Positions 8,743 through 63,416 of a stretch of DNA of 64,000 nucleotides are shown here, piece after piece (the first letter of the stretch is position 1; the number at the start of each line of letters is the position of its first letter). A program made the translations under genes and the position numbers. Under the pieces are notes generated by a model, which was given only the letters and a program-made list of their open reading frames with translations, did no database searches and had not been told where the DNA came from. The stretch comes from Podarcis vaucheri (Eukaryota), in the NCBI GenBank assembly GCA_965113315.1, contig OZ220376.1; one strand, written 5' to 3'.

Positions 8743-8821
8743 TACTTACTGTTTTATGATTAAATTAATTTCAACAAAAATCATTTCTCCAAACTCGGCC
8801 GGTAGTAAATAGGTACACTGC

Positions 8822-19703: not shown

Positions 19704-19810
19704 GTACGTTATCCCATCCTTGCAAAGATCTGATGCTGGTTTTTATCAGTGTGTTGTGAGGAACAGAATGGGGGCACTCCTGCAAAGAAAATCAGAAGTT
19801 CAAGTGGCAT
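19704..19810 (+). CDS. SDK1: Sidekick-1 internal coding exon (exon 3 equivalent), second half of Ig1
   Basis: ctttctgtcttacag acceptor; GTATGT donor at 19811. Translates [35 protein letters not shown](Y), containing the Ig DxGxYxC motif. 107 nt; phases 2 to 1 join the flanking exons in frame. Not in the ORF track. Confidence 0.96.
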
Positions 19811-23066: not shown

Positions 23067-23442
23067 CCGTTTTCGCCCGAATATAAGCCGTACCTGAATA
23101 TAAGCTACACCTTTAAAATTGGAGGGGGTGGGGAGGAAAAATGAAAAAATATCCGAATATAAGCCACTCAATTCCTCACTGCTCCTGGCTGCATTCTGGG
23201 GGCGGGGGGGGGGCTACACTGTGTTGCTGGCAGCCTTTCCCTTTCCTCGCTCTCTCCCTTCCCAGCCTTGGGGGAGAGGATGAAGAACTATTCATGGGGC
23301 AGGCGCCACTTTGCCCCTCTCCTGGCACTGTTTGCCCCATGCCACTGGCTGCATACCGTAAGGTCACAAATATAAGGCACACTTTACCTTTTCACAGTCG
23401 GAATTTGGGGGGAAAGTGAGGCTTATAATCAGGCCAACACAG
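23067..23442. mobile_element. Tc2/pogo-like non-autonomous element
   Basis: TIRs CCGTTTTCGCCCGAATATAAGCC / GGCTTATAATCAGGCCAACACAG, TA on both sides, internal repeats of GAATATAAGC. Confidence 0.8.
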
Positions 23443-23444
23443 TA

Positions 23445-23670
23445 CAGTGGTACCTCGGGTTACAGATGCTTCAGGTTACAGACTCTGCTAACCCAGAAAT
23501 AGTACCTTGGGTTAAGAACTTTGCTTCAGGATGAGAACAGAAATCACACGTTAGCGGCGTGGTGGCAGTGGGAGGCCACATTAGCTAAAGTGGTACCTCA
23601 GGTTAAGAACAGTTTCAGGTTAAGAACGGACCTCCAGAATGAATTGAGTTCTTAACCCGAGGTACCACTG
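23445..23670 (+). mobile_element. Tc1/mariner MITE, family A
   Basis: CAGTGGTACCTCGGGTTA...TAACCCGAGGTACCACTG with TA TSD. Confidence 0.92.
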
Positions 23671-24304
23671 TATATCGTCCTAGAATATAATTATTCTCAT
23701 AGGGTATGATAGAGGAAACCAGTTTCCAGTGTAGGCACTAGTTGTGCTAAATCCTCTGATAAGGGAATTGACAGAGAAAACTTATACTCGCATTACACCA
23801 GGACTGGAGAGACACTGCCGCTGTTCCAAGCAAATCCCTGCCATACTGTGCTCAGTGTGGAGGGGAGGAAAAAGCTGCACACAGCAAAAAATATAAAGAC
23901 AGGAGAAAAATGGCAGATACATCCACAGCTCTCCTGGCAATACCGCCACAGCCCACCAGCCAATCACTGTACTAGGAGGGACATCCACAGGCCACCCACA
24001 CAGAAAGAGTCAATGAATATATAATGGAGATGCTCTCTCCCCAGTACACCTCCTGCATCAGCACAGCAGGCAAAGCACAAGAGGACACCACTGTGCACCC
24101 ACACCAGCAGCCCCAGTGGGACAGCCAGAAATGACCCAGGCTTCCTTCCAGGCATTTAAATATAAGAACATAATAATAAAAGACATTGGATTCTTATCTC
24201 ATTATACATGACTAAGCCATTTCTCACCTTCTCACCCCTTGCCTTTTCCTGTAAGACCTATTACAGTCGTTAAGAGTCGTCAACAGGCTCATCTCAGCTA
24301 TCTG

Positions 24305-24391
24305 CCAATCTCCCATTCCCACCACCCTTCTGAGTAATACCCCTCCCCACCTTCTCACTATATAGAAGGATCTGGCAACTTCTGTTTCAGT
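24305..24391 (+). promoter_or_regulatory. Candidate Pol II core promoter of the Penelope pLTR
   Basis: CCAAT at 24305, TATATAGA at 24359, initiator-like TCAGT at 24387-24391; the first T of TATA is 30 nt before the Inr A (24389). Confidence 0.55.
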
Positions 24392-24429
24392 GTATCTGAA
24401 GAAGTGTGCATGCACACGAAAGCTCATGC
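24392..24429 (+). ncRNA. Minimal type-I hammerhead ribozyme motif
   Basis: GTAT-CTGAAGA-A-GTGTG-CATG-CACAC-GAAA-GC-TC-ATGC: CUGANGA and GAAA cores, 5-bp stem II, palindromic AGCU in place of stem III, stem I GUAU/AUGC (one G:U). Predicted cut after C24425. Confidence 0.72.
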
Positions 24430-24484
24430 CAAGAACTAACTTAGTTGGTCTTTAAGGTGCTACTGGAAGGAATTTTTTTATTTT

Positions 24485-24640
24485 GAACATAATAATAGTC
24501 TTGCTGGATCTGGCCAATGGCCCTCCTAGTCCAGCGTCCTGTTCTCACAGTGGCCAACCAGATGCTTGTGGGAAACGTGCAAGTGGGACTCAAGCTGAGG
24601 AGTGCCCCCCCCTCCTGTGGCTTCCAGCAACTGGTAATCT
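24485..24640 (-). mobile_element. Old CR1-type 3' tail, target of the Penelope insertion
   Basis: gctggatctggccaatggccc...tagtccagc...tgttctcacagtggccaaccagatgc; reverse of the 9600-9725 type of tail. Confidence 0.7.
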
Positions 24641-24659: not shown

Positions 24660-25365
24660 CAGTTCCCCAAGGCCTGTTCATGGAAGGACAGCAAGGGGGG
24701 AAGCCAGTCTGACTTCTCTAGGGAGGGAATTCCAAAGCCTGGTAGGACTGAGAGCAGGATGGGTTCATATGAGGGAATAGAGTCTTTCAGACAGCCCGGA
24801 CCTAAGCCATATGGGGCTTTGTAAGTCATAGCCAGGGACACAGGTGGTGCTGTGGGTTAAACCACAGAGCCTAGGACTTGCCCATCAGAAGGTCAGTGGT
24901 TCAAATCCCCGCCATGGGGTGAGCTCCCGTTGCTCGGTCCCTGCTCCTGCCAACCTAGCAGTTCGAAAGCACGTCAAAGTGCAAGTAGATAAATAGGTAC
25001 CGCTCCAGCAGGAAGGTAAACAGCGTTTCCGTGCGCTGCTCTGTGGCTTAGTCATGCTGGCCACATGACCTGGAAGCTGGCTCCAATAAAGCGAGATGAG
25101 CGCTGCAACCCCAGAGTTGGTCACGACTGGACCTAATGGTCAGGGGCCCCTTTACCTTTACCTAAGTCATAGCCAGCACTTTTAATTGTGCCTGGAAACA
25201 GACTGGTGGCCAGTGGAGAAGTTGTCATGTGTTCCCTATAACTAGCCCCAGCCAACAATGGCTCTTTGAACCAGCTGAAGTTTCTGAGCACTTTTCAATG
25301 GCAGCCCCACATAGAGTGTGTTGCAGTAATCCAAACAGGATGCAATTAAGGTGTGTGTCACCGTG
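24660..25365 (-). mobile_element. L2 LINE fragment interrupted by a SINE
   Basis: Minus peptide MTYKAPYGLGPGCLKDSIPSYEP; ttgcagtaatccaa is the reverse of the L2 LDYCN motif. Confidence 0.75.
24835..25162 (+). mobile_element. Sauria SINE nested in L2
   Basis: tRNA-like head and ACCTTT tail; 13-bp TSD TAAGTCATAGCCA at 24822-24834 and 25163-25175. Confidence 0.92.
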
Positions 25366-27598: not shown

Positions 27599-27746
27599 AC
27601 ATGGGGAATTTCCAGGATGAGGACCAGAGGAAAACAGTGTCTGAAGGGCAAGCCACAATCCTAAACTTTCCACACATCACAAGCTACCCCAGACCACAAG
27701 TGACTTGGTTTAGAGATGGGCACAAGATTATACCAAGCAGCAGAAT
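27599..27746 (+). CDS. SDK1: Sidekick-1 internal coding exon (exon 4 equivalent), Ig-like domain 2
   Basis: cttctctttgcag acceptor; GTAAGT donor at 27747. Translates (Y)MGNFQDEDQRKTVSEGQATILNFPHITSYPRPQVTWFRDGHKIIPSSR(I). 148 nt, in frame with the previous exon. No further SDK1 exon was recognised up to 64000, consistent with a very long downstream intron. Confidence 0.96.
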
Positions 27747-28878: not shown

Positions 28879-31760
28879 GTCTCTGGCCATTAGCTTCGCC
28901 CCTCAGAAGTTTCCTGGCTCCTCCCTAAAAATTGTCATTCATTTCATTAGTTATATGTTGCTTCTCAGGGATGTTCCTTCCCTGAGGTACCTCACAACTT
29001 ATTAAAACAAAGCATAAGATAACACAAATATAAAGCTATAATGTAAAACACAGCTAATCTAAAACAGTATTGGAAGAGAATAATAGACTTAAGCTGGCTG
29101 GCTTTCTTTTAAAAATCTGTAGGGTTCTCCTAAAAAGCAGCAGAGAGGAGGCCATATGCAAAGAGGTTGCAGAAGTGATGGGGTCATGACAGGAAAGGCT
29201 CTGTCTCTGGTACTTACCAGCCTAACAATTTTTGCTGAAGGACCAGAGAGCAGGGCCTCAGAAGCCAAGAGTAAGGCTCTGGCAGGTTGATATGAGTGCA
29301 GGTGGCCCTGCAGATGGCCTCAAAAGACTCCTCCTCCTGCTGCCCTATAATCTGTGGAAATGCCTCCTGGAACACCTGCAGGATACTATGTCTCTTGCTT
29401 CAAATCCCTCCCCCAAACCTACTTTTTATTTGAAGCCTTTGGCACAACCCCATCTATACTGTAACATAACTCCTTGTTACTGAAGCTACTGCATGTTGTT
29501 TCCCTGTTCACCTCTGCCTCTCCTCCATCTTTTGATGGCCCTGTATCAAATTTTAGACACTGAGTTTCTTGGGACAGGGATCTGCCCTCTTGTTCTCTGT
29601 AAAAGTACCATGGACACTAATGACAATTTATTATTAAAAATACTTTTAATCAGGGAGAACATTCTATCTTGTTAATTTTGTAATGCTTTTACCCTTTCCT
29701 TGTTAAACACAATGAATATTTGGTTACCTTTAATTGTATATTAATAAATGTTATGCCATTGAATATATGGGGGCAGCTTTGTAAGAACAAAAGACTAAAT
29801 ATCAAGGCAGTGGAATTCAGGATGGGGTTACTAGGGGTTCCGTTGCTTCAGAAATATAAATGTAGAATTAAAATGTATCAAAATATAGACACCACTCACT
29901 TAATTTACATTTTAATATCTATTTTTGTTATTTTCCAGGCTTGTATATACCAATGCTCAGATAGTAAGGATGTAGCCTTACTATCACTGATAAGTTTGTA
30001 AAGTAGAAACTATATATTCTGATGTTTAACATTAACATACTAGTTTCCTTTTTATTTTTTAAATAATCTGTCGAGAGAGATCTCATTATAGTTCCTGACA
30101 CATTATCTCATCATTCTTCTTTTGGATATATTTTTGCAAACTTTGTTCATTCCTCCTTATTCTTCCTAATGGTTACTATTGACACCTTAAGATGGTTTCT
30201 GTTCCTACTAGAGACACCCTGAACTTGTAATAAGTAGAGAAAATAGTCCAATTTCTTATTCTTCTTTGTGGGTCATTAAGTGGGTCATTAAGTTAAGAAC
30301 TGTCAGTTATTTAGGCTAGGATAGAAAACCATTATGATTCAGTGAAGAGATGAGTTTTCACCTTCCTTCCCTCATCAAAAGTCAAGAGAGAGATCCTGCA
30401 TATATGAAACTGCAGTGACTGAAGAAGGGAGTTTTCTTCAAGGGGGAAGAAAAGCCCCTGGGCAATTTATTTCAGATACTAAGGATTGTAAATTAAATAG
30501 TTTCATAACTCAAAAATGAATAATCATTTTTTTAAAAAAAAAAACCGTTCAACAATGTATTGATTCAGCTGGCAATTTTTTTTTAGCTGTGTTTGGCAAG
30601 GATTGTTTTTGCTAGCAGTTCATTGCACATTAAATACAATGTGTAAAACACATGCTCACACAGACCACACTATTCATTGTTACCTTGTCCTTGGCTACAT
30701 TTCTGGCTGGTTCTTCAAGAGATGAGTCATGCTGTATACTCCAAGATGCTCCATTTTCACTTTGGTTGTGGCTAGGGTAGCCTCTTTAATGCTCTACAGA
30801 AATAACATTAAAAACAGTTCAAAAGTGGGATCTTAAAACTGTAAGGTCACATTCTACCATCTGAAGGTGAGACTTTACTTTCTGAAGGCTACATTTTCTC
30901 TATCCCAGTAATGCTACCAAATTTAGCTTCTGTTGTAATGTGTGTGTTTTTTTACTAGTAAATCACTTAAACTCAGAAGAAATGCAATGTTTTTCTTTAC
31001 TCTTGTCCTATACCTAACAATCTGCATCTTTTGCTTAAGGCTAGAAGCTGGTTCAGTAAAGATGAGATTTTACATTTTCAGAAATGGGATCATCCATTGT
31101 GTGTTCCTTTCTTCCATTTAAATAAGTGAAAGTTTCTTCTGGGTAAACATGAATAGGTCTTACTTGCAATTGTATTTTTATTATTGTTTAATATGAAGGA
31201 ATGGTTATTGAAGTTATTGGAGGCAATGTTTATGTGTTTGATTAGAGAAAAACCATTGTTAATTGTTTTGGACTTTTTGTAGGAAAAGGAAAGGGAAAGA
31301 ATTTGAGAGATTTGGGTCTGAAGATTGAGAAAATATTGCCCAACAGAAAGTAGAATAGTTGGATGTTATCCTAGAGTGAATATTTTGAATAATTTCTTTT
31401 ATGTAACTGACAGTCGGAAAACTAGAAGTCCTTTTAATCTTTTCTTTTCTTCTTTCATTCTTTTCTTTCTTCTTCTTTTATTTTTCCTTTGGTGTCCTCT
31501 GCTCTGAGCCATTACTGGGGTCCAATGATTACACTCACACATGGAGGTAATGGATGGATGGAAGGACCCTGAGTGGGAGGAAGGGAAGGAAGACCTCTCA
31601 GGGTGAGAGATTGGGAGAAGGGAAAGCTCCCAGGTGAAAGCTGGGAGGGCTCACCACTTTCTGTGTGAGACAAGGGTTAAGAAATACCTTTAAGAGAGGA
31701 CTCTGTGTTTTCTTTCTCTGTTTTTGTTTTTATTTAGTTTCTTTTATCTTGTATTTTCAT

Positions 31761-32055
31761 GAATCATAGAATCATAGAGTTGGAAGAGACCACAAGGGCC
31801 ATCGAGTCCAACCCCCTGCCAAGCAGGAAACACCATCAGAGCACTCCTGACATATGGTTGTCAAGCCTCTGCTTAAAGACCTCCAAAGTAGGAGACTCCA
31901 CCACACTCCTTGGCAGCAAATTCCACTGTCGAACAGCTCTTACTGTCAGGAAGTTCTTCCTAATGTTTAGGTGGAATCTTCTTTCTTGTAGTTTGGATCC
32001 ATTGCTCCGTGTCCGCTTCTCCGGAGCAGCAGAAAACAACCTTTCTCCCTCCTCT
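31761..32055 (-). mobile_element. Young CR1 LINE 3' fragment
   Basis: Minus peptide [66 protein letters not shown]; possible 5-bp TSD ATGAA (31759-31763, 32056-32060). Confidence 0.93.
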
Positions 32056-32074: not shown

Positions 32075-33389
32075 TAATTGTTAGATTTGGAGGGATTCAA
32101 CAACAGATTTGGGTGGCACGAGTACCTATGGTATGATAAGAAGAAAATCCATAAAGGTTTTGAAAGCCACATCTTTAGAGGTCCCCTGAATGATGTGTGG
32201 GAAAGGCATAAATGCCTATTAGAACCTAAAGTACCACACTGGCTATCCCCATTAGAAGCTATGAGTGTTAAGAAGATTAATATGAGAGGCAATTGGATTA
32301 CCTATGATCAATTGATATTCAAAGAAGGGGGAAAATGGAAAATGAAACCTTATGAACAGGTTAAAGAAAATGTATTTGATTGGCTACATTATTTCCAAAT
32401 AAATGAAATGTTCAGGAAAGACACTAAGGCCAAAGGCTATGCCGACAAGGACTCTAAATTTCAGATTGAAATAATAAATAATGACTATAAAATTCTATCC
32501 AAAATGTATAACTTGCTGCTAGAATGGAATTTGATAGATGAGAAAGTTAAGTCGGTCATGATACATTGGGCCAGGGACATTGGACTTAATATACAATTTG
32601 AAGATTGGGAAAAACTATGGAAAAAAACCTAAAATTTATGGCATGTATGACGTTAAAGGAGAACACAATGAAGATGTTTTATAGATGGTATATAACACCC
32701 GCAAAATTGGCAAAAATGTATAAAATCTGTAATAAATGCTGGAAATGCAGGGACAAAGAGGGTTCTTTCTACCATATGTGGTGGGAATGCAAGAAAGTAA
32801 AAGGCTTCTGGGAAAGTGTATATAATGAAATGAAGAAAATCTTAAGGTATACATTTGGAAAAACCCCCCGAAGCCTTTCTGTTAGGAATATTAGGAAGGG
32901 AGATAAAGAGTAAGGATTGCAAACTGTTTCAATATGCAGCGACTGCAGCAAGAGTTCTGCTGGCCCAAAATTGGAAACAACAGAAAATACCGACAGTGGA
33001 AGAATGGAGAATGAAACTGTTAGACTACGCTGAGTTGGATAAATTGACTGGGAAAATTAGATATTTAAGAGACCAAAGGTTCATTGAGGACTGGGGAAAA
33101 TTTGTGGAATATCTGGAAAGTATAAGTGAGGGACAGATAACGCTAGTGGGGTTTAAAAGAGCACTGTGAAAAACGTAGGAGTATTGTCTAAAGAGAAATG
33201 GAATGCAAGGATATAAATAATGTCAATATAAATTATGAAATGCGTATTGTAAAAAATGACTACGGATGATTTGTGGAGAAGCTGAAGGAAGTCCAAAAAA
33301 AGAAAGTAATCTGTGAAAACAGGAAGTAGAATTTTATGTATGTTTCGTTTTGTTGTAAATTAATAAAAATTATGTATAAAAGAAAGAAA
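32075..33389 (+). mobile_element. 5'-truncated L1/Tx1-clade LINE (ORF2 C-terminal region, 3' UTR, A-rich tail)
   Basis: Three overlapping ORFs (32078-32632, ~32630-32860, 32855-33169) joined by two frameshifts; CCHC knuckle CWKCRDKEGSFYHMWWEC; AATAAA at 33362; 17-bp TSD GAAAAGGGTTTAACAAA at 32058-32074 and 33390-33406. Confidence 0.92.
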
Positions 33390-33978: not shown

Positions 33979-35691
33979 AGTGAAAGATCAGTTATTCTGG
34001 GAAGCAAAAGCCTCCATGCAGTATTTAGCCAGGTTCCTCTAGCAGCGAAAGAAGGAATATTCTCAAGAGAGAGCGCACACATTATTGTGGTTTTGAGGGA
34101 TGGAATGAGGAGGACAAGTTTAGCTCTGTCCCATATCATCTACCAACTGTGGCAAGTTTCTCACATTGCCTAATTATGGAGTCAGCATAGTTGTACTCCA
34201 TGGGAAAAGAGGTTACTTGTTCATTGAGACATCCTGATCTTTTATATTGGTGGTGCATAGCAAACTTGAGCAAACTGGCTTGCAGCTCCCGGGCAATTTG
34301 GCTGAAGAGTGGATATTCCACATTAATTCTTTCCTGTTAAGGCTGTTCTCCAGGCTCCTGTTAGTTAACATTGAACTTTTGATTGTGAACTTGCCTTAGC
34401 ACAGCTTATCAGTAGCATTTGATAAATACCTGTCTTAGCAAAGCTTATCTTTGAGTTCTCCTGTTGTGTATTTCTACAAATATCAAAATATTGTTTTGAC
34501 TTTTTCTAAATTGTGGAAATCTAGATACCTTCATTGTCATAGTGCACTGTAAAGTGATAGATATTAGGCTGCTTCTGAACTAATTTATTGGCTTTTGCAT
34601 TAAACTGCTTTGGATTATTTTTTATTAATTATGCTGCCCAGTGCTTTGGTAGTCATTTCTCATATTTATTAAATAGTTCTTTAATGCATGCTGTGCTTGA
34701 AATGCTTCATCTAAAGGCTCCCTTGTGCTTGCTGGATCACTGCTCTGAAGATCGGAAGTGAAGTTATATCTTTTTAAGACTTTATCTAGAAGGTGTCTAT
34801 AGAGAAGTAGAATGCATGATTTGCTCCCTTCTTAAATCCATCCACAGTAAATATTCTGCACTGCTTTCATCCATTTGGTACTTGCTGATTTCCTTGAGGA
34901 TTTTCTGATACACCAGCTGTTGTGGACGCCACCCCTGCTCAACTGTGATAGGATGATTTACCATTCTTGTGCCAGGAATGTAGTAATCCAATTTACTAAT
35001 TTTGATCTCTTCATTACATGTTATCATTTTAAGCTCTTTAAGTTGTTTCAGCATCTTTTGGGTTTGCTTATATGTTTCACTCCTTATATTTATAGACAGA
35101 AAAAACTCACTAGGTGGTTGCTTTTTTATTTGAGTCGTGCTGATATTTAAATTAATTTACAGTCTTCAGTATCTGAAAGAAAGTGCCTGGTTATTAGTTT
35201 TTTTCTTCAAGAAAATCTGCCTTCTAGTAGTTAATGGAATTATTTTTGGTATAGAACAAGTTCAGTTCAAGTTATTGTTTGATAATCAGTAGCATTTGAG
35301 ATGTATAACTTACTTTATGACTAGTTTGCTAAGGCAACCAGAAGAACGATTAGTAAAGCATTTTTATCAGATAAGATCTTTTATATAACTGAACAGATGG
35401 CCAAGTTTTTCCTAATTACCTTGCACAGAAAAGGGCAACTGACCATATTAACAAAACTGGAGAAACTGTATTTTAACTCTGCATTTTAACCTGAATGGGT
35501 CTTATGACTGTAATAAAGTTATGGATTGCCGGGCAAAAATTATCAGCAAATGTAGCTCATCAAAAGTGACAGAGATATTTCATTCTCCTTGGCTTCTTTG
35601 CAAGAACAAGGAAGTCATCAGAATCACCTCATTTGTATTTCTTCTTCAGCTGCATGATGGGTGTCCAAAGGCTGCCCCGTGCTGTCTGGCA

Positions 35692-35941
35692 TAGGTAAAG
35701 GTAAAGGAACCCCTGAGTGTTAGGTCCAGTCGTGGATGACTCTGGGGTTGCAGCGCTCATCTCGCTTTACTGGCCAAGGGAGCCGGCGTACAACGTCCAG
35801 GTCATGTGGCCAGCATGACTAAGCCACTTCTTGCAAACCAGAGCAGTGCACGGAAATGCCATTTACATTCCCGCCAGAGCGGTGCCTATTTAGCTACTTG
35901 CATTTTGACATGCTTTCGAACTGCTAGGTTGGCAGGAGCTC
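35692..35941 (-). mobile_element. Sauria SINE, 5'-truncated
   Basis: aggtaaaggtaaagg tail; body collinear with 2526-2770. Confidence 0.9.
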
Positions 35942-37895
35942 CTCAAGGGCACACTTAGTGTTTCTGTCTGTGCAAAGTCAAGACATGTGCAGCAGGGCTT
36001 CCTCTGGCTGTCTCACCCTCAAAATCTTTGAGGAATTCTCCCACTCCCAGTGCTAGTCATTCACAAGAGTGGCCCAAGCAGTTTCAGTCTTAAAAATCAG
36101 GCTAGTAGCCAGATTTCTGCAGGGTTGAAATTATGTTTAATTTTACATAAATTGCTATATTTTCGTTGTATTGTATTCAGATTGCTATAAAGAACAAGCA
36201 TGTAGCCAATATTTTTCCATAGGTAGCTGATGTTTTTTGACCCAAGGTTGTGGTAGGCTACCTTGTGGCTGGGTCTTATGTTTGGATCACAAGTTGAATC
36301 ACAAGACAACGATGAAAGGACCTTCAACCTGAGTGTCTTTGCTAATGTTTATATATGCAATCAAGCTGCTTGCATTATACAGACATACAAAGAATTGCAT
36401 GTAGCAGTTGGTCTTTGGGTGTTGCAGTAGAAGAAAGAGGGAGAAACAATATTTTTATTCTTTTTTAGCTAGAAAGCTACATTTTAGTAAAAGATGTTTA
36501 AAGGCTCACACTGGGACTAGTGTAAAAAGTTTATAAGACTGAAACAATGTATCTTTTGCCATTTGTAACATTTTAAACCAGGTTTTCTTAGGAAAGGAAC
36601 TTATTTCTTGTGTTAAAGAAGATTTCTTCCTGTGCAAAGGTCACATCAGAGATCTTCCTCTGGTGCAATATATAATATGCAGATCCCATCAATTGTCAAG
36701 CTGATTTGCCACATGATCAAGAAGGTTTTCCAAAAATGATAAATGAAGACTAGCCTTCTGTTATTTCTCAGCAGAATCTTAAGGCCTCACTTAAGAAGGA
36801 ATGGGCTGAATCCTTTTGGGCAAGGGACCCACTGAGCACCAAAATCAATGGGTTGGCCAGTCTCTAGCAGGTAGATCTTATTAGTCAGGAAGGGTAAAAA
36901 TTAAATATACATGTGGTCAGCTGGGCCTCTCCAAGCTACTTGTCCACACACTTTGAAAAGCACATGACCCTGTAGCCATCCTATGCATGTGTAAAATAAA
37001 GTAATATTGTAATTAATTTAGAATTGCATAAAACAATATTGCCTGTTTGTGCATTTATCATAGTTGACTGAACACCTATCTCAAAAGCTCTCTGCCTTTT
37101 GGCACTTTACCAGAAATACCAAGACCTATGCAGTGCAGATTCACATGCGTCTCTATGTTTCAACAACAGTATATCAGTGCGTGCTTCTTTTGTAAGTGGC
37201 TATTTATATTTTTGTGGCTTTTCATAAGCTGCCCTGAGCATCAAATGATAAGGCAGTGTATGGATGCCTAACATAAAACTACAGATTTATGGTAGGTGTA
37301 CATTTGAAGCCATGCTTTCTCTGCAGTAGCAAATCTGCAAGGAGACTAGCTGCTCATGCAAAATCCAATACAACCTTGATTTGAAAGAGCAAATTATCTT
37401 AATTTTATCTTGTCTCATAAAGAGATTAGTATATAATTTTTCCCTTGGGAAATTGTATGTATGTACTAGTGTCAATCTGAGGAAACAAACACTGCAGGTG
37501 CTTATCATGGTAGACAGGAATACATGTTTTAGAAAGTGCCAGGCTTCTACTTAACTATAGGTTGTTTCCATCAAAGTGCATTCCTTTCTCTTCCAGCCAA
37601 GAACAGGGAGTGTCTTATACCTCTTACACGTGCCATCCTCTTATGGTGTCCTATAATTCCTGCAATACACAGATGAAACACCTCAAACTTTCAGATTCTC
37701 TTGTCGTGTTAAGCTTGCTTGTGCAATAATATCAGCAGCCTGTCACATGCAGGTGGCTAGATCTTCTCAGGTGAATTATAGGTATTATTGTGTGTTTAAA
37801 TGCTAGAACTACCATGCAGCTCTATCACTGAAGGCTCAAGCAGCTTCAGTTTCTTCAAAACAAGACAGTCCCTGCCCCCAGGCTTACAATCTAAA

Positions 37896-38007
37896 GAATT
37901 AAAAAATTCCTTCCAGTAGCACCTTAAAGACCAACTAAGTTAGTTCTTGGTATGAGCTTTCATGTGCATGCACACTTCTTCAGATACCAACACGGCTACC
38001 TATCTGT
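37896..38007 (-). mobile_element. Short Penelope-like insertion: inverted pLTR joined to a plus-strand tail
   Basis: Reverse complement of the 24392-24480 pLTR, then caacacggctacctatctg; 8-bp TSD AATCTAAA at 37888-37895 and 38008-38015. Confidence 0.85.
37950..37987 (-). ncRNA. Minimal type-I hammerhead ribozyme motif
   Basis: Minus strand reads GTAT CTGAAGA A GTGTG CATG CACAT GAAA GCTC ATAC: intact core, perfect 4-bp stem I, one G:U in stem II. Confidence 0.68.
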
Positions 38008-40254
38008 AATCTAAAAAATGATGCAACACACAAGGGAAAGGGGGCAGGGTAGGAAGGCAAAAATCAAAACCAAAACTCAGGCACCAGTTTCTAAACAGTT
38101 GCTCCTATAATGATCAGCTGGCATAGTTGAGGGGCAGGAGGTGCCTGGTGAAGCTGGGCCTCCAGCAAATCTGATGAAATGAGCCCTGCTTCCCAGCTCT
38201 CCCACTGCTGGAATTTTGTCAGGGCAGATTTGTATAATCACAAACAAAAAATATTGCATATGTGAGGAGTGTTCACAAGAGTTGGTACAGCTGAACTAAT
38301 ACAAAGCTGTTGACCTCATCCATTGGTGGGGAGCCTAAACAAGGAAATTCCTAACCTCATATGTCTTTGTAATTGTTCTGTTGAAGTCTTTATTAACATC
38401 TTTTCATGCATGTAATGTTGTCAGGCATATTGTGCCCTTTCTTGCTAAGATAGATTGGCAAAGACTGCAATGGAACACTTAGAACATCATAGCTATAGTC
38501 GGTTACCTTTGTATGGCTAGAAAAGGAAGCAAATAAATAAATAAATAAATAAAACTCTGAAAATCACCTGCTAGGGCTTGCAGTTTTTGCTTTGATTATG
38601 CAATGGCTCAGCTTAATGTTCTATCTATCCATTTTTCACTTGAAAACAAACACCACTTTATTGTACATCTGCTGAACCAATACCAGTGCTGCACTTTTCT
38701 GCAAATATTAGCCTGCCTTACAGCTTATGCCAGTTGCACATAATTGCATTTCACATATACCAGATAATACTTTAATTAAAATTGTGATAATTAGCATGTA
38801 TTTTTAATGAACAATAAATTCTGAGATTGCCAAGCCAATGGTGCATTTTCTGAATAATACTGCTGCTTATGGTGGGGGAGAAAAGAAAATGAAGCTTTTA
38901 AATATGCAAGGTTTATTTTTAGAATGTCAGTATTTATCCATACATACATTAAAACTCCCAGATCTGTATAGGTTGCCTTCTTGAGCTATACAGCTATAGA
39001 TATAAAAGCCAACACAATGAAGCTTCCCTCCCATTGTTAGGGTTTAATTTGAGTAAGTCTTACAAACCCTGCCTCCTAAATCATCTCAGTTTGTTATGGC
39101 CTCTTCAAATACACTTTCCACTGCTGGGTGGCTGTTAATGCTTCATTACCTGCCTCATTTCCACCCTGGGTGTAGACATAAAAGTTTATCTTGTTGCCAG
39201 CAATGGATGTTGATGTGCCATAACTATTCCAACATGCAAAGGGCCTATGTTACACATATGCTCACTGACCTAGAAGTCCTGTGTGTGTTGGTTTTAATTT
39301 GGTTAAAATGGAAAAACAAAACAAAAACCTAGCTATGGTAAAATTTTATAAAAGAGAATTCATTGGATATCTAAGATCCAGGTTTTGACGCAAGAACTCT
39401 TTGGTGAGAGAGCCCCAGCAGTGATTTAAAATCACAAAACATGTAGCAAAGTAAAGCATGGAAATCGAGGCTTCTAGACCTTTAAAATGTCTCCTCCTAA
39501 GTTTCTTACTTACAATCTCTTCAAAGATCAGATTCATGGCTTTTTCTATGCAACAGTAGGAAAAAACAGGCTTAGGTTCCCCAAAAGGTAAATGGTTCTA
39601 AATTATTTGTATAGAAACACAAATATGGTTTGCTTAAGCCACACTGTCTAAGCTTGGGGCATCCAGCTTAGACCTCTTTCATGTGGTGAAAATAAAAAAC
39701 CAAAGAGTTTATTCCTTTCCTCCCATGGTGAGGGGGTGCAACCTAGCTAATCCTGGTAGGAGTCATGCATTTTTTTTTAGAGTTGAGCATGTTGGTTGTA
39801 TGAGGCTGATATATCCCACAGTGTGTGAGTAGGATGTTCAGAAAGGATCCTTTTGGGACACATATCTAACAGTGATCTTAGTAATTAAAGTGAAAAGCAC
39901 ATAGTTTAGTACATTTCAAGGTGTGAAAAAGTATATCAGTACTACAGGCCATGACCTCTTCTCTTATAGCTTTTCTATAGATCTCTCTTGATGATCATTG
40001 ACCTCTCTGCCTTTCCTGCCTGCCTTTATGTACTTTCAGAAGCATTTCTTTTGTTGAGTAGCAGCAAGACAAGAGATCAAAAAAGCTAAATCAACAACCA
40101 GTGTCCACAACACCACTGCCAGGCAGGCCTTTTGTGCTATCAGAGCAAATAATCTCTTGGCCTTCCCTGCCTCCCTTCATGCCATTGTGGTGATGTTCAG
40201 AAGGCTGGTGCTGGCCACAATGCTATCTTGGCTCTGCACTGACTGTCCCTGCAC

Positions 40255-45333: not shown

Positions 45334-45355
45334 ATACCTAGCTGAAACAAAATTT

Positions 45356-45441
45356 TAAAAAAATTCCTTCCAGTAGCACCTTAGAGACCAACTAAGTTTG
45401 TTATTGGTATGAGCTTTTGTGTGCACGCACAATTCTTCAGA
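45356..45441 (-). mobile_element. Penelope pLTR fragment with decayed hammerhead
   Basis: Homologous to 37900-37987; on the minus strand the GAAA core reads AAAA, stem II has a mismatch and the 5' strand of stem I is lost. Confidence 0.8.
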
Positions 45442-47085
45442 CAGTGTCTCTCCATCTCCGGAAAAGTAAGGGAGGTTTTAGGAAATTGAAAAGGACCAAC
45501 AGGAAAGGTAGTCTTACAACTTGAAAGAATGAACTCTAAATCTAATTAGACTCAAATTGTAGAGTGGAAAAAGCAATGCACTCTATCTCCAGGGCAAGAT
45601 GACCAACCCAACATGGCCAGTGCTGCTAGCTTACAAAGCCCAAACTCAGCTCTCTTTCTCTGTCATTCTGTGTCTCCGTTCCCTTTTCAGTCTGAGACAC
45701 AAAACTGCAGAATATTGTTCTCTGCTCGCAGCTGGCTCTCCTGCTCCCCTGCCCCTGCTAGAGGCAACAGGGTGCCCACCATTACCCAGCCATCAAATTG
45801 TAGTTTCTCTAACAAAGCATGTGTCTCACAACTTGGCCCACTGACCATAACCCTCAGCTGGCCAAACCCCAGATCTTAGAGCAATACATTCACTTCTCAT
45901 GCAGTGCCAAATGTCATTTTACACCTCATTAGCTATGAAGAGAAAGCAGAGGATGCTTGCTTTTCATTGTGAACTGTTTTCATGCATGGTTCCTATTGTA
46001 CACCGCTTCAGTAGTTTTTGGCTATTAAGCAATATATAAATCTGGAAAAATGGAATGATTTGGGGAAGCACATTCAGTGGTATGCATGAAAGAAATGCAT
46101 ACTGGGAACACCTCATCAACATTGTCTCTGATGGATTCTTCTTACTCTCACCTCTGGTTTTTATGTCTTATGTATGAAAATGGAAGATGGTTGATCCTAC
46201 TGAAGTCTGCATTTGATTTTAGAGAAAGAAGCAGTTTATCTTGATTAGTACCAAATGACGCCTGCCGGTGCTCTAAAATCTTTGTTGCTGGCTGCCAGCC
46301 GCCATTTATTCTTGTCCTTCTCCTCCTTTAGGACTCCTGCTCTACTAGACACAGAATGTGAGACTTTCTTAATAATGATCACTGGTTCAAAGCACTGATT
46401 ATTTTAAAACTTCAGGTCACATTTTTGGGCAATCCATCATCTATTGTTCCCATGGAAACAAAAATGGGAGGGAGCATTGAGAATGCAGAGTTTATTGGGG
46501 AGCTTGTAAATTTTAGTTCTGGCAATTGACTAACTATAGATGCTTTTCTTTCTTTCTCTTTTAGTGTCTGCAGATATTGGAACTATCCCAATTTTGAATC
46601 CCACTACAGATTCATTTTGGAATTACATTAATTAAAAATTGTGAAGCAGACAAAAACATTTTTTTTACTTTCTCCATGGACAATCTCTCTCTCTCCCCCC
46701 CTCTCTTGTTGAGATGTTGATGAATAGAGGATGATGAATACAGAGGTGTATATTTAAAAAGTAATGATTGCCAGGTCAAAAACTTTTTCCAGGTTAACCT
46801 TTGTCCACTTCTACAATGGTGGCTAATAAATAAATCCCATGCTCTGTGTATCATCAAAACTTGTAATGGAGCAATATAGATTTACACTGGGGAAAGAAAT
46901 AGTATTTGTTCTTGCACCTGTTTCCCATTTCTGTTGTCATTCCTTTGGAGGATAATAGCAAATTTGTGTCCCTCGATGTCTTCTGCATGTGATTATGACG
47001 TCATTGAGAATATTAACTCTCCCTGTGTCTGAATGTTTTAGAGGGAAGGGGGACAACTTTCCAAAACAATAACAACTACCAGTTA

Positions 47086-49512: not shown

Positions 49513-49726
49513 GTCTTTGAAGGTTATGTTATAAGCCTTGTAGCTTTGACTTCTTAATAGGATATTTACTTAATCTTTTCAAATAATTTGCAGTCTGTAC
49601 TAGGTCTCAGATTTGAATAATCATGGTAACTAGACAGATGTGCTCATTTAATAGACAACACTCTTCTTTTTCATTGTTTATTGAATAAATTTCAGGTAAC
49701 TGTCATGTATAGCATTATTATTGGTA

Positions 49727-49958
49727 CAGTGGTACCTTGGGTTAAGTACCGGTACTTAATTCGTTCCGGAGGCCTGTTCTTAACCTGAAACTGTTCTTAA
49801 CCTGAAGCACCACTTTAGGTAATGGGACCTCCTTCTGCTGCTGCGCCGCCAAAACACGATTTCTGTTCTCATCCTGAAGCAAAGTTCTTAACCTGAGGTA
49901 CTATTTCTGGGTTAGCAGAGTCTGTAACCTGAAGCGTATGTAACCCGAGGTACCACTG
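49727..49958 (-). mobile_element. Tc1/mariner MITE, family A, opposite orientation to 8501 and 23445
   Basis: CAGTGGTACCT...AGGTACCACTG with TA TSD. Confidence 0.92.
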
Positions 49959-52900
49959 TATTGGTTTTATTCATTACCATACATCACAAGGTATCTAAGT
50001 GATTAGAGTGAAGTAAATTGGGCTGAGAGGCAGTGACCGACTGGCCCAAGGTAGCCAGTGAGCTTGATGGACGGATGGGGACTAGACTCTGTCTCTCGTG
50101 GTCTGACACCCTAACCACTAGACCACAATGGCTTAATTCACATGATAAACTTTTTATAGTCTGGGGTTCCGATACGTTGTCTGTTGCTTATATGGGGCTG
50201 TAGATTAGAGCTAGAAAATAAAACACAACTTAATCCAGGAATAATTTTAAAACACTACAACCAGCCATACGTGCATAGTCACAAACTAGATGACTCTTGT
50301 TGTCCCTTTCAGGTCTACAATTCTATGATTCTAAAAATAAAGACATGCTTTATGCTGGTTTGTAAGTATATATTTACTATTTTATGGAGCAGAAAACAAT
50401 GGAAATACAAAGAAAATTCACGGAAAATTCACAAAAGGCAACAATTCTGGCCCAGACCAGTGTGATATTTGAGGGCAAATATAATATATGGGCTTCTCAG
50501 AATTAGGGATAAGCCACTGATAGTGTTTCTGCCTTTGCACTGTGCTCCTCCTTCCCCAAACAACTTGGGAGAATTCTTGCTGTGGGCCAGGAAGCAGAAG
50601 CAAGAAAGGCTTGCCATATCCTCCCCAAACACGTTCAACTGAGGCCTCTCCCAAGCAGATGTATGTTCCACATGCAGGCAGCAAAAATAAAAATTAAAAA
50701 ATGGGGGAAATTAAAATAAAACCAGAGCAGCAAGAGGGGGATTCCCATGTAGCTTCTTCCACCCCTGCATTTTCAAAAAGTTCATCAAACAGCTGCTTGT
50801 TGATGGTTCCATACAGCCAGCAGGCAGAAAAATGGTTGACAGGTGATTCCCACACTTTCCCTCCCAACCCAACATACTTTTTTTTTTTAATGAAGTCTCT
50901 CAAGTAGCTGCCTGCTACAATACAGCTGGCAGGCAGCAAAATAGAGCAGCAAGCAGATGCAACCGGCACATCTTTCTATAACTATATTCCCATAGTAGGC
51001 AGGACTTAACCTGCTGAATTTCTGCTTGCCATACAACAGTTAAAAACTCAAGAATTGTTCCCCCTTCCATTCCTGAACCAAAGCCTAGGCTACCATCCTA
51101 TGCCCACTGACCTGGGAGGAAGCCCAATTACCATAAGAGATTTACTTCCAAGTAGATATGCATACCATTGTACTTTCAGTTAATTATACAGGGGATTCTT
51201 AACAAGGGCCTGTTTTTTTTAGTTCCTGCACAGCAGGATACATGCCTAAACCTCTTAGCAAAGTTTTCATATTTGTCTTTTGCTGGTTTTTTTTTTTTTA
51301 AATATCCACCCACATTTCTTGGGACTACCTGATCTCAGACGAACCCCCCACAGGCAAGCTGCACCCTTGTTGTTAGAGGGAAAGGAAGAGCAAACTATGA
51401 AGAGTTCAAGGACTATAATTAGAGAAATAGGAAAAGCACACTCAAGAGGAGGGAAAACAGCTGTTGTTTAGGACCCCAGGGCTTACTTTTTGCTGGGTGT
51501 CAAAACACTTATCAATCACAGCTCTGATGTCACTCATTAGAAAGCGCTGACAGGCAGGAGCAGCTAGGCTGACTCATATCACAGAAATTGCTTAGGCTGG
51601 TTTTTCTGCATAACTTTAGAGACTTCTTAAAAATGAAACCTCAGAGTCTGGGGCCCCTGCTGGGGTGCCAATGAAAGCCATTGTCGGTACCATGGGTCCA
51701 CAGGAACTGGGGTGGCAATTCTCGCCTTAGTATTCTGATACAGTATGACAGTTTTGTTCTTGTTTCTGATATCAGGTGACATCTTAATTTTTACCCCCAA
51801 CATGGTAGGCAGTGTTATCCCTATCTTGTCTCTACAGTGAGTGAAAAGGTTAATCCTCGCCACAAAACACCTGTTCTTCTTGCCTCTGCTTCCTGCTGCT
51901 TTGTTTATTCTCTGCCTGGTATTTTCACTTAACTATATGGCAGCCAATAACTGCACTCTGAGGGAACTAAAACAAATGTTTGGTTCATTTTTAAATTACA
52001 TTGTATTGCTTTGTTCTAACTCTCCCTTTAAAATAAACATTGAAAGTAGAATTATTGATGTGTGTTTTTTTCTTTTAAAATAGAGTTGCATTTCATTTAG
52101 TTCAGATAATTTTAAATGGTCCTTCAGCAAAAGTAAATCAATTTTTGTACCATATAACTTTCAATTACAGTCTTTGGAGTGAAAGAACAGCATGTTTGAA
52201 AGAGCTTAAAAAGATCTCAGCAAGATTTTCTTACATAGTCTGCCTGAAATCTGGGAAAGGTTATTATTATTTTTTTATTCCCAGGGAAAACCCATCTAGT
52301 TAGAAAGCCAGGCGTGTGAGTGAGAAAAACAGTTTAAACCCCAGTCACATGCTTTAAATTTAGGTCACATCTTACTAGTTTCTTACACTTTCTTTTCTTT
52401 TAGTCCCTCAGTAACAATGTTTAAGGAAATATCGTTGAACAACAACAACAAAGCCGGGGTGGGGTGGGGAGTCCTAAATGCTTATGAAACAACTAGTGCT
52501 ATCCCAGCCTGCAGCTTATGGGCAGGAGTGAATTTGCTCCATGTCCTCCCCGCTTGCAACAGATGAAGATTGAGTGAGAGGTGTCAACATTGTCAGCACT
52601 CATCTGAGAGGATGGGCAAATCAAAGGAAGGTTGTAAACTGTTGTAAGAGGACACTTCCTCTCTTCCTCCTTAGCATTTGGTTTATTTAAACCATTTATA
52701 CTTCACCCTTTAGCCAAAAAAAGACTGCCAGAACAGCTTGTAAAAATCAGTAGGAAAAAGCTGTGGGAAGGAGGAGGAGGAAGAGGAGGAGGAAGAAGGC
52801 TAGCAAACCCTTATGGCTCCAATGAGACAAGTACATAGTGCTGTCTACAGATTTTGTCTATCTAGGAGAGGGCACCCCACCCCAGATCAGATCTGGGAGC

Positions 52901-53533: not shown

Positions 53534-54385
53534 ATCCACATGTTTCCTATGCTGTCAGATAATGCCAGAAGATCCAAACCATATAGAAGAAAACTTATGT
53601 TTTGGCTTCTTCCACATGGCCTGGAGCTTCTCCTGCCACCGAGCAGCAATGATTCCCATGCCACAAAATTAATGTTGGAAAAGAACCTTATGCCAATAAA
53701 TGTTGCCATCTAAGATACTTGAATAAAATATAAATAACATAAATAGAATAAAGATATTTAAAATATCCAGAGCTGTGACCCCTCTGAGGCATTGTATATA
53801 TCTGATTAATGGAGACAAACTTTGACGGTACCATTTCAAATGTTATCCTGAACAAATATATTCAATAACATAATTTTTTTTCCTTGAAGCAATATTTAAA
53901 AGGGAGACAAAGCTGAAAATTCTGCTTAAGGTCCTTTCATTACACATTTTTCTTGTTCTTTTTCCTTTTCCTTTCAGTAACAGGAATGGTTAGGAGAGAG
54001 CAGGGCTGCATTCCACAAGGGTACATAATATCTTATGACATCCAGCTTAAGGAGAACTCATAACTCATGAATGCCATAGCTGTAAAACAGCTGAGTTAAG
54101 GGGCCATTTTTAACCTGAGATAATAAATTGTGCACCAAGACTTCACTTACTGTATTAAAAGGGCACCTTATAGCACTAGACAATGAAGATGTGATGCCAC
54201 TGTGCATTCAGCTGTGTTAATATAACTCAGGCTGCCTTTATGTGCCATCAAAACACAGTATTTTTCCTTTCCCACAAAAGCATACCTGTAAATAGAAACA
54301 GATGGGTAGCCGTGTTGGTCTGCCATAGTCAAAATAAAAAAATTCCTTCCTGTAGCACCTTAAAGACCAACTAAGTTAGTTCTTG

Positions 54386-54423
54386 GTATAAGCTTTCGTG
54401 TGCATGCACACTTCTTCAGATAC
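54386..54423 (-). ncRNA. Hammerhead ribozyme motif, left arm
   Basis: Reverse complement of 54428-54465. Confidence 0.65.
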
Positions 54424-54427
54424 AGGT

Positions 54428-54465
54428 GTATCTGAAGAAGTGTGCATGCACACGAAAGCTTATAC
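54428..54465 (+). ncRNA. Hammerhead ribozyme motif, right arm
   Basis: GTAT CTGAAGA A GTGTG CATG CACAC GAAA GCTT ATAC; the cleavage-site nucleotide is U here, versus C in the other copies. Confidence 0.65.
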
Positions 54466-54524
54466 CAAGAACTAACTTAGTTGGTCTTTAAGGTGCTACA
54501 GGAAGGAATTTTTTTATTGTAAAT

Positions 54525-54525
<1 letters not shown>

Positions 54526-54581
<56 letters not shown>
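54526..54581. repeat. (GAAA)14 microsatellite
   Basis: Perfect tetranucleotide array, read directly. Confidence 0.95.
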
Positions 54582-54583
<2 letters not shown>

Positions 54584-54759
54584 GTATGCTTTTATAAATC
54601 TTATTTAGGAATTAAATGAGAACATACATGTGTGCTCACAAAGCAGAACTAGCATATAATAGGCTGATTTTGACCATAGTGTAAGCATTTTAACTATTCA
54701 AATGGAGGGAGTTGGAACACCAGTCTCTTTAGACGCATCCCACTTTCCCCCCATTTGTG

Positions 54760-55520
54760 CCTTTGGTATTTCACCTTTAAGAAATTCCCATCCATCTTGG
54801 ATTCCCTTCTCTTTGAGTGTTTCTGACCATGGGATCTCACCCAGTAGTTCCTTAAGCTTTTTAAATCAGCCTTCTTAAAACCCAGAGTGCTTGTCTGACT
54901 TACACTCAGCTTTCCTTTGCCTCTGTATCAGGAAAGCCAGGAGGCCATGATCACTTTCTCCCACGTTTCTCCATACTTTCACTTTGTCGATCAGTTCCTC
55001 CCTGTTGGCAAGGGCCAGGTTCCCCTTGTTCCTTCCTCCACCTTCCTGGGAATGAAATTGTCAGTGAGGCAATGGAGGAATTTGCTGGACCTTTCCTTCT
55101 TGGCAGAGTCTGAGTTCCAACAGATATTGGAGTAATTGAAGTCTTCCATGACTACTATATCTCTCCTTTTGAATGTTTGGAAATCTGCTCTAGAAAGGAA
55201 TCATCCAAGTCTTTGGTCTGGCTTGGAGGTCTCTAGCAGACACACCCAGTAAGGTCACTGTTGTTTCCCTCTCCTACAATTCTCTCTCCTATGATACCAT
55301 ATATTTCAGTTTGCCTTCCATTCTCCAGGTCGTGTGCCCCTAGACCCTTCAGTTTCCTGCCCAGAGTCTCATAGTCCCTTGCTATGTGTTGAAGTCTGTG
55401 TCTGGCAGTATCATTTGTAAGGGGTTGTGGTCAGTGGGCTTTATAACACAGGGCAACTTCTCTGCCACATCGTGAATCTTTGCACCTGGAAAGCAGCACA
55501 TCTCCTGGGACGTCCTGTTT
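54760..55520 (-). mobile_element. Degenerate CR1 5'/internal fragments (ORF1 esterase-like domain and ORF2 AP endonuclease)
   Basis: Minus peptides QEMCCFPGAKIHDVAEKLPCVIKPTD (CR1 ORF1 SGNH-like) and VC*RPPSQTKDLDDSFLEQI...VMEDFNYSNICW (APE YRPP and GDFN motifs). Confidence 0.8.
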
Positions 55521-61630: not shown

Positions 61631-62840
61631 GACTCTGTCAGATTTCAGTGTGGGTATGTTTAATTTAAGACAAAGGCGAAGAACCAGTAAACATGTAAGA
61701 TGTACTCCACTCCTACTCTATCTTGCTCTTGTGATGCACACCAAGATAAAGTACTGTACTGATTTGAAGAGCAAACAATCGCTTTGATGCAAAATCAGGA
61801 GATAGCATCAGGCACCTGAAACTTCTTATTCTCTTACAATGTTACCTCTCTATGTAAACTTCTATGAGTATGAAAATCTTTAATTTTTTCCCCTGGTGTG
61901 ACCTTCTGTGCTACAATATCAAAAACTTATTAAAGCAAAATAGATGGAGAATGATGTTAGGAAACCCCAAGCCTCTCAATTAGCTCAAATTTCCAAGTGA
62001 TGGCTTGAGGACTCATATTGAATGCTAAGGCAGCCTCACTTATAGCTCCCTGTGATCCAGAATAATTGCACATATCATTAGCATTCAATTAACACGAGTT
62101 AAATTTCTCTAAGTACTGCTAACTTGGAAGACCCCATTTATTGATGTACTGCAATAGATTCTCCTAATTTGATGGCTACCAATGCTAGACATCTATGCTG
62201 CTTTAACTGGCCTGTAGAAATGAAATTTCTACTCCTTGTCTGCCAATTCTCTAATGAATGCAAGATGGGGCATATTTTACCATATTTAGAGTGAGAAGCT
62301 CTCATGAAAGTCACAAATGATCTCCTTGAGGTTCTTTGTTCTTAATTTATTTCATCTCTCTGTTGCATTTGGCACTGCTGGCAACCACCTTTATTTCCTC
62401 CACCAAACAAATTTCTAGCACTTAGCTATCAGTTTATCTTCTTTCTCTTTCACAGCCTCCCTTGAGGTGCTCCCTGTTTGCTCACGGTGTTTCGTAAGGT
62501 CTAGCCTTCTGCTTACTCTGAACTGGGAGTTGCTTGGTGTGACTCAGTTTCCCTGAGCACACACCAAACATTTTACATGTTTCATACATGTACTGGTGAA
62601 TGAGCCAGGTGAGTCATCAGACCCACCTGAAAAGCATCCATTAGACTGAACTGAAGCCCACTGTGGATTTCCTATGAGGCAGAGCAAGACAGCAGCAGCA
62701 GGAAACAGATGCTGTTGGGTAAAGAGGAGCACCGAGCTATTAGAAGACAGACTTGTGGGTCATGCAACCTATCCTGTGCCTCCACCCCACCACCAGCTAG
62801 TCTGTTGCCCCCCACTGTGCTAGAGTGCTACAGAGTACTA

Positions 62841-63082
62841 CAGTGGTACCTCGGGTTAAGAACTTAATTCGTTCTGGAGGTCCGTTCTTAACCTGAAACT
62901 GTTCTTAACCTGAAGCACCACTTTAGCAAATGGGGCCTCCTGCTGCCGTCGTGCCGCCAGAGCACGATTTCTGTTCTCAACCTGAAGCAAAGTTCTTAAC
63001 CCGTGGTACTATTTCTGGGTTAGCAGAGTCTGTAACCTGAAGCATCTGTAACCTGAAGCATCTGTAACCCATGGTACCACTG
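62841..63082 (-). mobile_element. Tc1/mariner MITE, family A
   Basis: CAGTGGTACC...GGTACCACTG with TA TSD; carries the duplicated 15-bp TGTAACCTGAAGCATC-type unit also present at 8511-8552. Confidence 0.92.
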
Positions 63083-63416
63083 TATTGCCAGTGCTGAAGT
63101 TACGTTGGACTTCTGTAAATGAAATAGACATGAGTGGGTGCCATCTTGTCCTTTTGCTCAGGCAGTCCCCACCTCTCAAATTTGTCATTTTGGGGAAAAG
63201 TGATGACCTGGTGGTAGTGACCCAACTCAGTGTTTAATTAGATGAAACAGATGATCCTCTCCAGTCTGGATTTGGGGCTGAGACATGTTTCAGGTACATG
63301 ACTCAATTATACTGCTAAATCTAGGATGTTCTTGTCCTATAACCTGCCTGGGTGGGTCAACTGTTTGAGTTCTGCATGTAAACTGCTCCTTGGAAGAGAA
63401 TCCTTGGAAGTAAATA

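Follow-up and report, generated by a model that had tools for sequence, protein, structure and literature searches.

The perfect palindrome at 54287-54529 of the window (the 64-kb stretch of Podarcis vaucheri DNA that was analyzed as a whole) is best read, with a probability of roughly 0.55, as a reptile Penelope-like element (PLE) insertion that is 5'-short and was dead on arrival, built head-to-head in one integration event by two-ended priming. The structure and the hyper-editing of lizard Penelope RNA are already known in kind, and the locus is a tidy example. It consists of the following parts.

54287-54298, plus strand: left TSD copy, TGTAAATAGAAA, 12 bp (sequence match)
54299-54332, minus strand: PLE 'tail' of 34 nt, on the left arm only and unpaired, matching the 30-40 nt tail of PMC3846280, PMC8557442 and PMC11167929
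54333-54424, minus strand (sense): left arm, a 92-nt pLTR fragment, 126 nt including the tail (palindrome and family alignment)
54386-54423, minus strand: left-arm minimal type-I hammerhead, which the SDK1 pre-mRNA carries as antisense (motif parse and published consensus)
54425-54426, no strand: GG spacer, in which 54426, but not 54425, agrees with the base preceding the arm in the long family copy (24179-24484)
54427-54518, plus strand (sense): right arm, a 92-nt tail-less inverted pLTR fragment (palindrome and family alignment)
54428-54465, plus strand: minimal type-I hammerhead of the right arm (motif parse; fits the consensus and the turtle example of PMC4209133)
54518-54529, plus strand: right TSD copy, TGTAAATAGAAA, whose first base, 54518, is common to arm and TSD
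54525-54583, plus strand: pure (AGAA)14.8 microsatellite, which abuts and overlaps the right TSD

Outward expansion from the centre gave 92 perfectly complementary pairs between 54333-54424 and 54427-54518. When the window was scanned for perfect palindromes with a spacer of 0-30, all 15 longest entries belonged to this structure. The 12-bp duplication TGTAAATAGAAA occurs in the window, with both strands checked, only at 54287-54298 and 54518-54529, and such a TSD is expected by chance at about 2e-5 (11-mer, slack of ±3 at both ends). The arms, the GG spacer and the TSD were thus recovered exactly where the sequence-only reading had placed them. Nevertheless, the insertion is asymmetric, as the 34 nt of 54299-54332 on the left arm are without a partner. 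The last 21 nt of this tail match 37986-38006 at 20 of 21 positions. The tail forms a weak stem-loop with an AC-rich 5-nt loop, for which no significance is claimed because it folds no better than shuffles, and the ATG inside it may be the start of the ORF. Spacer base 54425 is untemplated or altered. Cap-templated addition of an extra G is a known phenomenon; it fits the spacer, as does a once-perfect 93-bp palindrome with one central change, and the two are indistinguishable.

Judged from its sequence, the insertion would be classed as Penelope-like, since every testable non-coding PLE feature is present. The features of EN+ PLEs that were found are a hammerhead-bearing pLTR, a one-sided 34-nt tail, an inverted 5'-truncated copy in head-to-head orientation and a TSD at an AT-rich site. 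The earlier proposal of a Penelope-like origin with an inverted partial pLTR is therefore borne out, as hammerhead, one-sided tail and TSD fit the published PLE structure. No Pfam match to an RT or GIY-YIG domain was obtained in 41 ORFs (40 of at least 105 aa and one shorter). Head-to-head insertions of EN+ PLEs carry the same inverted 5'-truncated copy at their 5' end (PMC3846280; Craig et al. 2021, PMC8557442; for D. virilis, PMC2377424). Published PLEs likewise have a tail of 30-40 nt on one end (34 nt at the focal locus) and TATA/Inr-like motifs in the pLTR (PMC3846280, PMC8557442). Their TSDs measure 8-10 bp in rotifer examples, compared to 8-13 bp in the Podarcis copies (PMC3846280, PMC8557442). 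The focal locus is a minimal form of this arrangement; its arms meet via a 2-nt spacer, in contrast to the overlap of about 15 bp in Pen2a_Av (PMC3846280, PMC8557442). There is no ORF between the focal arms, and the whole insertion is consequently a hairpin.

Two other classes of element were considered. A MITE or foldback DNA transposon was rejected, as the left end has 34 unpaired nt and a second full arm is absent from all three other copies in the window. Non-LTR retrozymes are likewise non-coding, hammerhead-bearing and pLTR-related (bioRxiv 10.64898/2026.07.22.740005). They were rejected too, because a retrozyme needs at least two head-to-tail hammerhead units on the same strand (bioRxiv 10.64898/2026.07.22.740005), and the focal units are head-to-head, with no such tandem among 18 rows.

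The right-arm hammerhead was parsed as follows.

54428-54431 and 54462-54465, plus strand: helix I, 4 bp, GUAU/AUAC
54432-54438, plus strand: CUGAAGA core, with an extra A at 54439
54440-54453, plus strand: helix II, followed by GAAA (54454-54457), a palindromic AGCU and U17 at 54461

Type-I PLE hammerheads are defined by a helix I of 3-5 bp, palindromic positions 15.2-16.2 and an NUH cleavage triplet (PMC4209133). Both focal hammerheads agree with the consensus on all points: helix I is short, 15.2-16.2 is palindromic, and an NUH triplet is present with U as H17 (PMC4209133); helix II is closed by G-C. The CUGANGA and GAAA core is intact in four of the five arms of the family in the window, namely both focal arms and those at 24 and 38 kb, and G12 is lost at 45 kb. 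The closest listed example, from Chrysemys picta (Cervera and De la Pena 2014, PMC4209133), has the same CUGAAGAA core, G10.1-C11.1, palindromic GC at 15.2-16.2 and U17. Helix I differs in a covarying manner, GUAU/AUAC in the focal arms versus GCAU/AUGC in the turtle, both of 4 bp (PMC4209133). Unlike published minimal type-I hammerheads, the focal helix II is 14 nt long and self-complementary, without a real loop (PMC4209133). The text of PMC4209133 that was covered gives no lizard example of this type. A cleavage-rate ranking that includes the CUU triplet was not found in the literature; GUU is listed among the active NUH sites. Helix II is a perfect 14-nt palindrome in both arms (54440-54453, 54398-54411), and cofolding favours intermolecular pairing; according to the folding model, this may aid or hinder dimer formation.

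Three further loci of the family were found in the window by BLAST, making four in 64 kb with the focal one.

24179-24484, plus strand: longer family copy, 306 nt, tail-less, with a 13-bp TSD
37896-38007, no single strand: family copy in which a tail-less 91-nt arm (minus) is joined to a 19-21 nt tail end (plus) at a 2-nt microhomology
37888-37895 and 38008-38015: 8-bp TSD flanking 37896-38007
45354-45450, minus strand: older family copy, a single tail-less arm (45354-45445) that has lost the catalytic G12 (BLAST and motif parse)

The copy at 24 kb starts with ten codons and a stop (24179-24211), which we take to be the end of a PLE ORF, followed by the upstream pLTR. It carries a TATATA at 24359 and, directly before the arm, a TTTCAG which is Inr-like or 3'-splice-like, so that in sequence terms it could be a promoter-bearing solo pLTR. 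Together with its TSD (24166-24497), it lies between the second and third SDK1 exons found, in sense to SDK1, and its C17 hammerhead is intact. The copy at 45 kb has an inverted stub of 5-6 nt next to the 5' end of its arm (p ~0.005, noticed post hoc), which may be the vestige of a second inverted arm that was deleted. No TSD was found at this copy; the other three of the four loci have one.

In the event proposed for the focal locus, the endonuclease would make two nicks 12 bp apart. The top-strand end would prime a cDNA of 126 nt from the distal start site, and the bottom-strand end one of 92-93 nt from the proximal start site, the template being a single RNA or a pair of RNAs from the same source gene. 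Both cDNAs would end at one shared 5' position, for which the simplest candidate is the start of the transcript, 30-32 nt below the pLTR TATA box; the joining of their ends would add about one base. At 37896-38007, the distal cDNA would have stopped early to give a collided product, whereas at the focal locus both would have run through.

The end points of the four loci are consistent with this scheme. The tail-less 3' ends, four in all, are no more than about 5 nt apart; the two tailed ends coincide at a single base 34 nt beyond them. The 5' ends of three of the four loci lie within about 4 nt (p ~0.002 for a uniform distribution over an assumed 300 nt, in a test chosen post hoc). This cluster is found 30-32 nt below the TATATA of the long copy, which suggests run-off at the transcript start, equivalent to 24389-24391 in that copy. 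The target junctions share just 1-2 nt, in line with what is described for PAc (introduced below; PMC11167929). The locus at 38 kb is a non-overlapping version of the same layout, with an inverted proximal arm and a distal tail end, a 2-nt microhomology and an 8-bp TSD. With its twin-priming-like structure, 37888-38015 is mechanistically the most informative neighbour.

Biochemical data on a related element point in the same direction. Poseidon of Anolis carolinensis (PAc) is likewise a squamate PLE with a hammerhead in its pLTR (Frangieh et al. 2024, PMC11167929). In vitro, the PAc protein cuts and extends both target strands, and reverse transcription has two start sites within the RNA, one on either side of the tail; uncleaved RNA is used, a dimer is predicted, and no homology to the target is involved (PMC11167929). 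The Podarcis end points suggest two tail-flanking internal start sites of the same kind, from sequence in this case and from in vitro work in the case of PAc (PMC11167929). The two elements differ in the start of the ORF, which is in helix II in PAc; in Podarcis the frame opened by the helix II ATG is just a few codons long, and the first ATG-led open frame seen is in the tail (PMC11167929). Inverted pLTR, tail, TSD and TATA/Inr motifs in the pLTR have all been described as typical of PLEs (PMC3846280, PMC8557442).

Several points weigh against two-ended priming. It rests on four loci, and for an overlap of 92 nt either a strand must be displaced or a second RNA used, neither being a known step. 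The transcript start was deduced from motifs, and TTTCAG may instead be a splice acceptor (helix I marks the end of an intron in D. virilis, PMC4209133). The D. virilis Penelope, moreover, has a TATA-less internal promoter (PMC2377424). The shared 5' point could also be a pause of the RT at a cDNA hairpin. Neither of the presumed nicks is at the ATT motif preferred by PAc (PMC11167929), which may be a distant model for the Podarcis family.

The same hairpin bears on self-priming, an account that is less probable but not negligible. Here, the cDNA or antisense template would reach the 5' end, fold back and copy itself, and the product would be resolved 34 nt short to leave a tail-less arm. Arm identity would then follow from a single RT. 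For head-to-head PLE junctions, the published preference is self-priming on an antisense template (Arkhipova et al. 2013, PMC3846280), and EN-mediated resolution has been proposed for the tail (PMC8557442). Moreover, the cDNA strand of the long copy forms a hairpin exactly at this point (-7.9 kcal/mol, z -2.38, 2/200 shuffles). However, fold-back on that hairpin would keep its 5-nt loop once, and the observed centre has these 5 nt in both arms plus the GG. Self-priming also leaves 37896-38007 unexplained, where the inverted arm and the tail end do not overlap, and in PAc one of the RT start sites is at the proximal end (PMC11167929).

Two-ended priming can be compared with a process known from other retroelements. 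In L1 twin priming, as reportedly set out by Ostertag and Kazazian in 2001, two target ends prime two cDNAs, resulting in an inversion inside one TSD. These cDNAs are said to come mostly from non-overlapping parts of the RNA and to start at the poly(A) and by internal annealing. This layout is seen at 37896-38007, whereas the focal cDNAs differ by their 92-nt overlap and fixed internal starts. Literature pairing 'twin priming' with 'Penelope' dealt with telomerase RNA, human elements and L1.

Another question is why the arms are still perfect. Both focal arms have T at arm position 35 and A at 74, where all three other copies have C and T. As only three copies serve for comparison, these 'private' variants may be subfamily markers. 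The two shared variants had been noticed before, and together with the identity of the arms they support the earlier statement that the arms were made from one template or homogenised later. An 86-position comparison shows no difference between the focal arms, and 3, 4 and 8 differences between them and the other copies. For the same positions, the changes specific to each locus number 1 at 24 kb, 2 at 38 kb and 2 at the focal locus. The absence of differences over 92 positions bounds the divergence of the arms at ≤3.3% (95%), about the distance among the three closest loci (~3-4/86); the case made for a recent insertion is accordingly weak.

It is quite unlikely, though conceivable, that the insertion is of the same age as its neighbours and that hairpin-templated repair or gene conversion fixed two mutations in both arms. 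This explanation bears only on why the arms are perfect and leaves their origin aside. The 1-2 changes of their own at each of the three closest loci are as expected for similar ages, and about 3 arm-to-arm differences would be expected at that age, so that none has p ~0.05; the focal locus is thus somewhat younger or homogenised. On the other side, a young insertion from a source with both variants fits the same data, the TSD copies agree at 12 of 12 positions, and the microsatellite is 100% pure. U17 is, furthermore, the natural state in the turtle motif (PMC4209133).

The host gene was identified from three coding exons.

9998-10157, plus strand: SDK1 coding exon, Ig1, residues 7-55 of 5k6w (PDB match, E 1e-26)
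19704-19810, plus strand: SDK1 coding exon, residues 60-91 of 5k6w (PDB match, E 3.8e-17)
27599-27746, plus strand: SDK1 coding exon, residues 97-144 of 5k6w (PDB match, E 1.1e-22), ending at a GTAAGT donor

All three have canonical splice sites, and sidekick-1 is their best PDB match, ahead of sidekick-2. A six-frame search found none of the motifs expected of the next SDK1 exon. Since the exon at 27599-27746 ends at a donor and these motifs were not found, the palindrome would lie within the following intron, 26.5 kb downstream. Its placement in the SDK1 pre-mRNA, as first suggested, agrees with the three plus-strand exons upstream.

As RNA, the palindrome region folds at -172.7 kcal/mol (z -28.5), and none of 200 shuffles was as stable. 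When some 230 nt of flanking sequence are included on either side, the arms pair with a mean probability of 0.986, and 90 of the 92 pairs exceed 0.9, in agreement with the dominant 92-bp hairpin predicted earlier. Folded separately, the single arms and the tail did no better than shuffles (z 0.46, -0.01 and -0.62). The window holds 24 inverted repeat pairs at E<1e-8, and the focal hairpin is therefore not the sole source of dsRNA, although its spacer is by far the shortest.

Each arm carries one hammerhead, as the sequence-only reading had it, but 'back-to-back' needs the qualification that the two are on opposite strands. No transcript consequently holds both in sense; one sense ribozyme is paired to antisense. 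A dimeric ribozyme between the two focal arms was rejected for the same reason, and a dimer with the copy at 24 kb is unlikely, as that copy is 30 kb off and in another intron, and the hairpin out-competes it. For the same 42 nt, the canonical dimer fold reaches -12.5 kcal/mol, versus -32.8 for the cofold minimum and -75.7 for the sense/antisense duplex. For minimal PLE hammerheads, cleavage was absent in monomers and weak in dimers (PMC4209133); that of the anole PAc ribozyme required the PAc protein and was dispensable for insertion (PMC11167929). The postulated sequestration of the ribozyme is thermodynamically true but probably moot, given that minimal PLE hammerheads are inactive as monomers and the anole one depends on protein. 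On these folding models, sequestration is real on paper and unlikely to have an effect on anything.

A likely reader of the hairpin is ADAR, by which it would probably be edited if the intron is transcribed. The earlier suggestion of ADAR is backed by data at the level of the class: in lizard brain RNA, Penelope is massively hyper-edited, with over 40K sites versus 8663 in all SINEs (PMC5625713). A useful comparison is the palindromic Harbinger of Xenopus (Porath et al. 2017, PMC5625713), which is also a self-folding insertion of about 200 nt with a short loop, editable without a second copy. Harbinger, in contrast, is a DNA transposon with a palindromic consensus, and the focal palindrome arises per insertion from a retroelement (PMC5625713). 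The editing of the frog Harbinger was ascribed to self-palindromy, and in the covered text of PMC5625713 the same is not said for Penelope.

The palindrome gives no sign of a host function; its consequence would be passive, and the hairpin in the SDK1 pre-mRNA transient. Intronic nuclear hairpins are poor Dicer substrates, and long loop-less duplexes are poor substrates of Drosha; Dicer is mainly cytoplasmic. It is very improbable that the palindrome was selected as a regulatory RNA, be it as endo-siRNA or miRNA against the family or for the tuning of SDK1 splicing or expression. The duplex is very stable, its plus strand contains 59 adenosines, and small RNAs from PLEs have been reported in rotifer and Drosophila (PMC3846280). 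However, the locus lies deep in an intron, the nearest exon found being 26.5 kb away, and the window already has its 24 inverted pairs. The literature searched contained no report of PLE siRNA in reptiles, which leaves the Dicer and endo-siRNA claim of the earlier reading without backing. Its proposal of a cruciform-prone, unstable site in DNA is weak or unsupported as well. The whole window gave no Rfam match at gathering score. A permissive scan of 54200-54620 (E<=10) returned 30 matches, all below threshold, mostly to miRNA hairpins and none to a hammerhead family; these were rejected as structure-driven. A miRNA precursor was likewise rejected, the best Rfam match being MIR1222 with 66 bits of the 90 needed.

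Perfect palindromes with a short spacer are also a known chimera signature. Complex PLE insertions do trouble short-read assemblies (PMC8557442), but an assembly or library fold-back artefact is scarcely credible here, as the mirror ends at the family's own proximal end, common to three other loci, and includes no host flank, the 34-nt tail is asymmetric, the TSD is unique in the window, and the 64 kb contain no N bases.

Other repeats in the window are noted for completeness. The overall repeat content appears to be of lacertid type. A 743-nt quasi-palindrome (79%) at 2133-2875 consists of two inverted SINE-like copies and is another intronic source of dsRNA; its repeat recurs at 17754-18070, 24834-25179 and 35679-35940. 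At 9288-9553 and 31757-32021, 22 kb apart, a 266-nt repeat is present in inverted orientation with 98.5% identity; the family is young and has a further partial copy at 5347-5438. Four repeat copies of about 230-250 nt with TACAGTGGTACC-type ends (8492-8744, 23440-23672, 49725-49963, 62839-63091) contain internal 16-nt tandem units and are MITE-like. A perfect 35-nt inverted repeat at 4148-4182 and 5811-5845, 1628 nt apart, is possibly the terminal inverted repeats of a DNA transposon. On the plus strand, 32078-32632 is an open frame of 184 aa without a Pfam match, which to our eyes resembles the C-terminal part of a LINE ORF2. On the minus strand, 54994-55200 has a sub-cutoff Exo_endo_phos_2 match (E 5.7e-4), the sole Pfam match among the 41 ORFs, and is presumably a remnant of a CR1-type LINE.

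Taken singly, the locus matters little: the repeat is abundant, this copy is intronic, and its structure is typical for PLEs. The fixed 5' and 3' end points of the four loci could, nonetheless, separate two-ended priming from self-priming. With reverse transcription presumed to start internally just below the 5' pLTR, a dimer that primes both nicks would give either the collided product or the full 92/126-nt palindrome. Two-ended run-off from the 5' end of the mRNA might hence routinely seed perfect intronic hairpins and explain the hyper-editing of lizard Penelope, a tentative idea about which we are rather doubtful. It was not found stated in the literature searched; subscription papers (e.g., Arkhipova 2006) and supplements may hold it. 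Palindromic insertion points to a simple explanation for why lizard Penelope RNA is so heavily A-to-I edited. If true, routine hairpin seeding would explain why Penelope is the outlier among hyper-edited 'LINEs' in lizard, and it would provide a genomic read-out for how head-to-head PLE insertions form.
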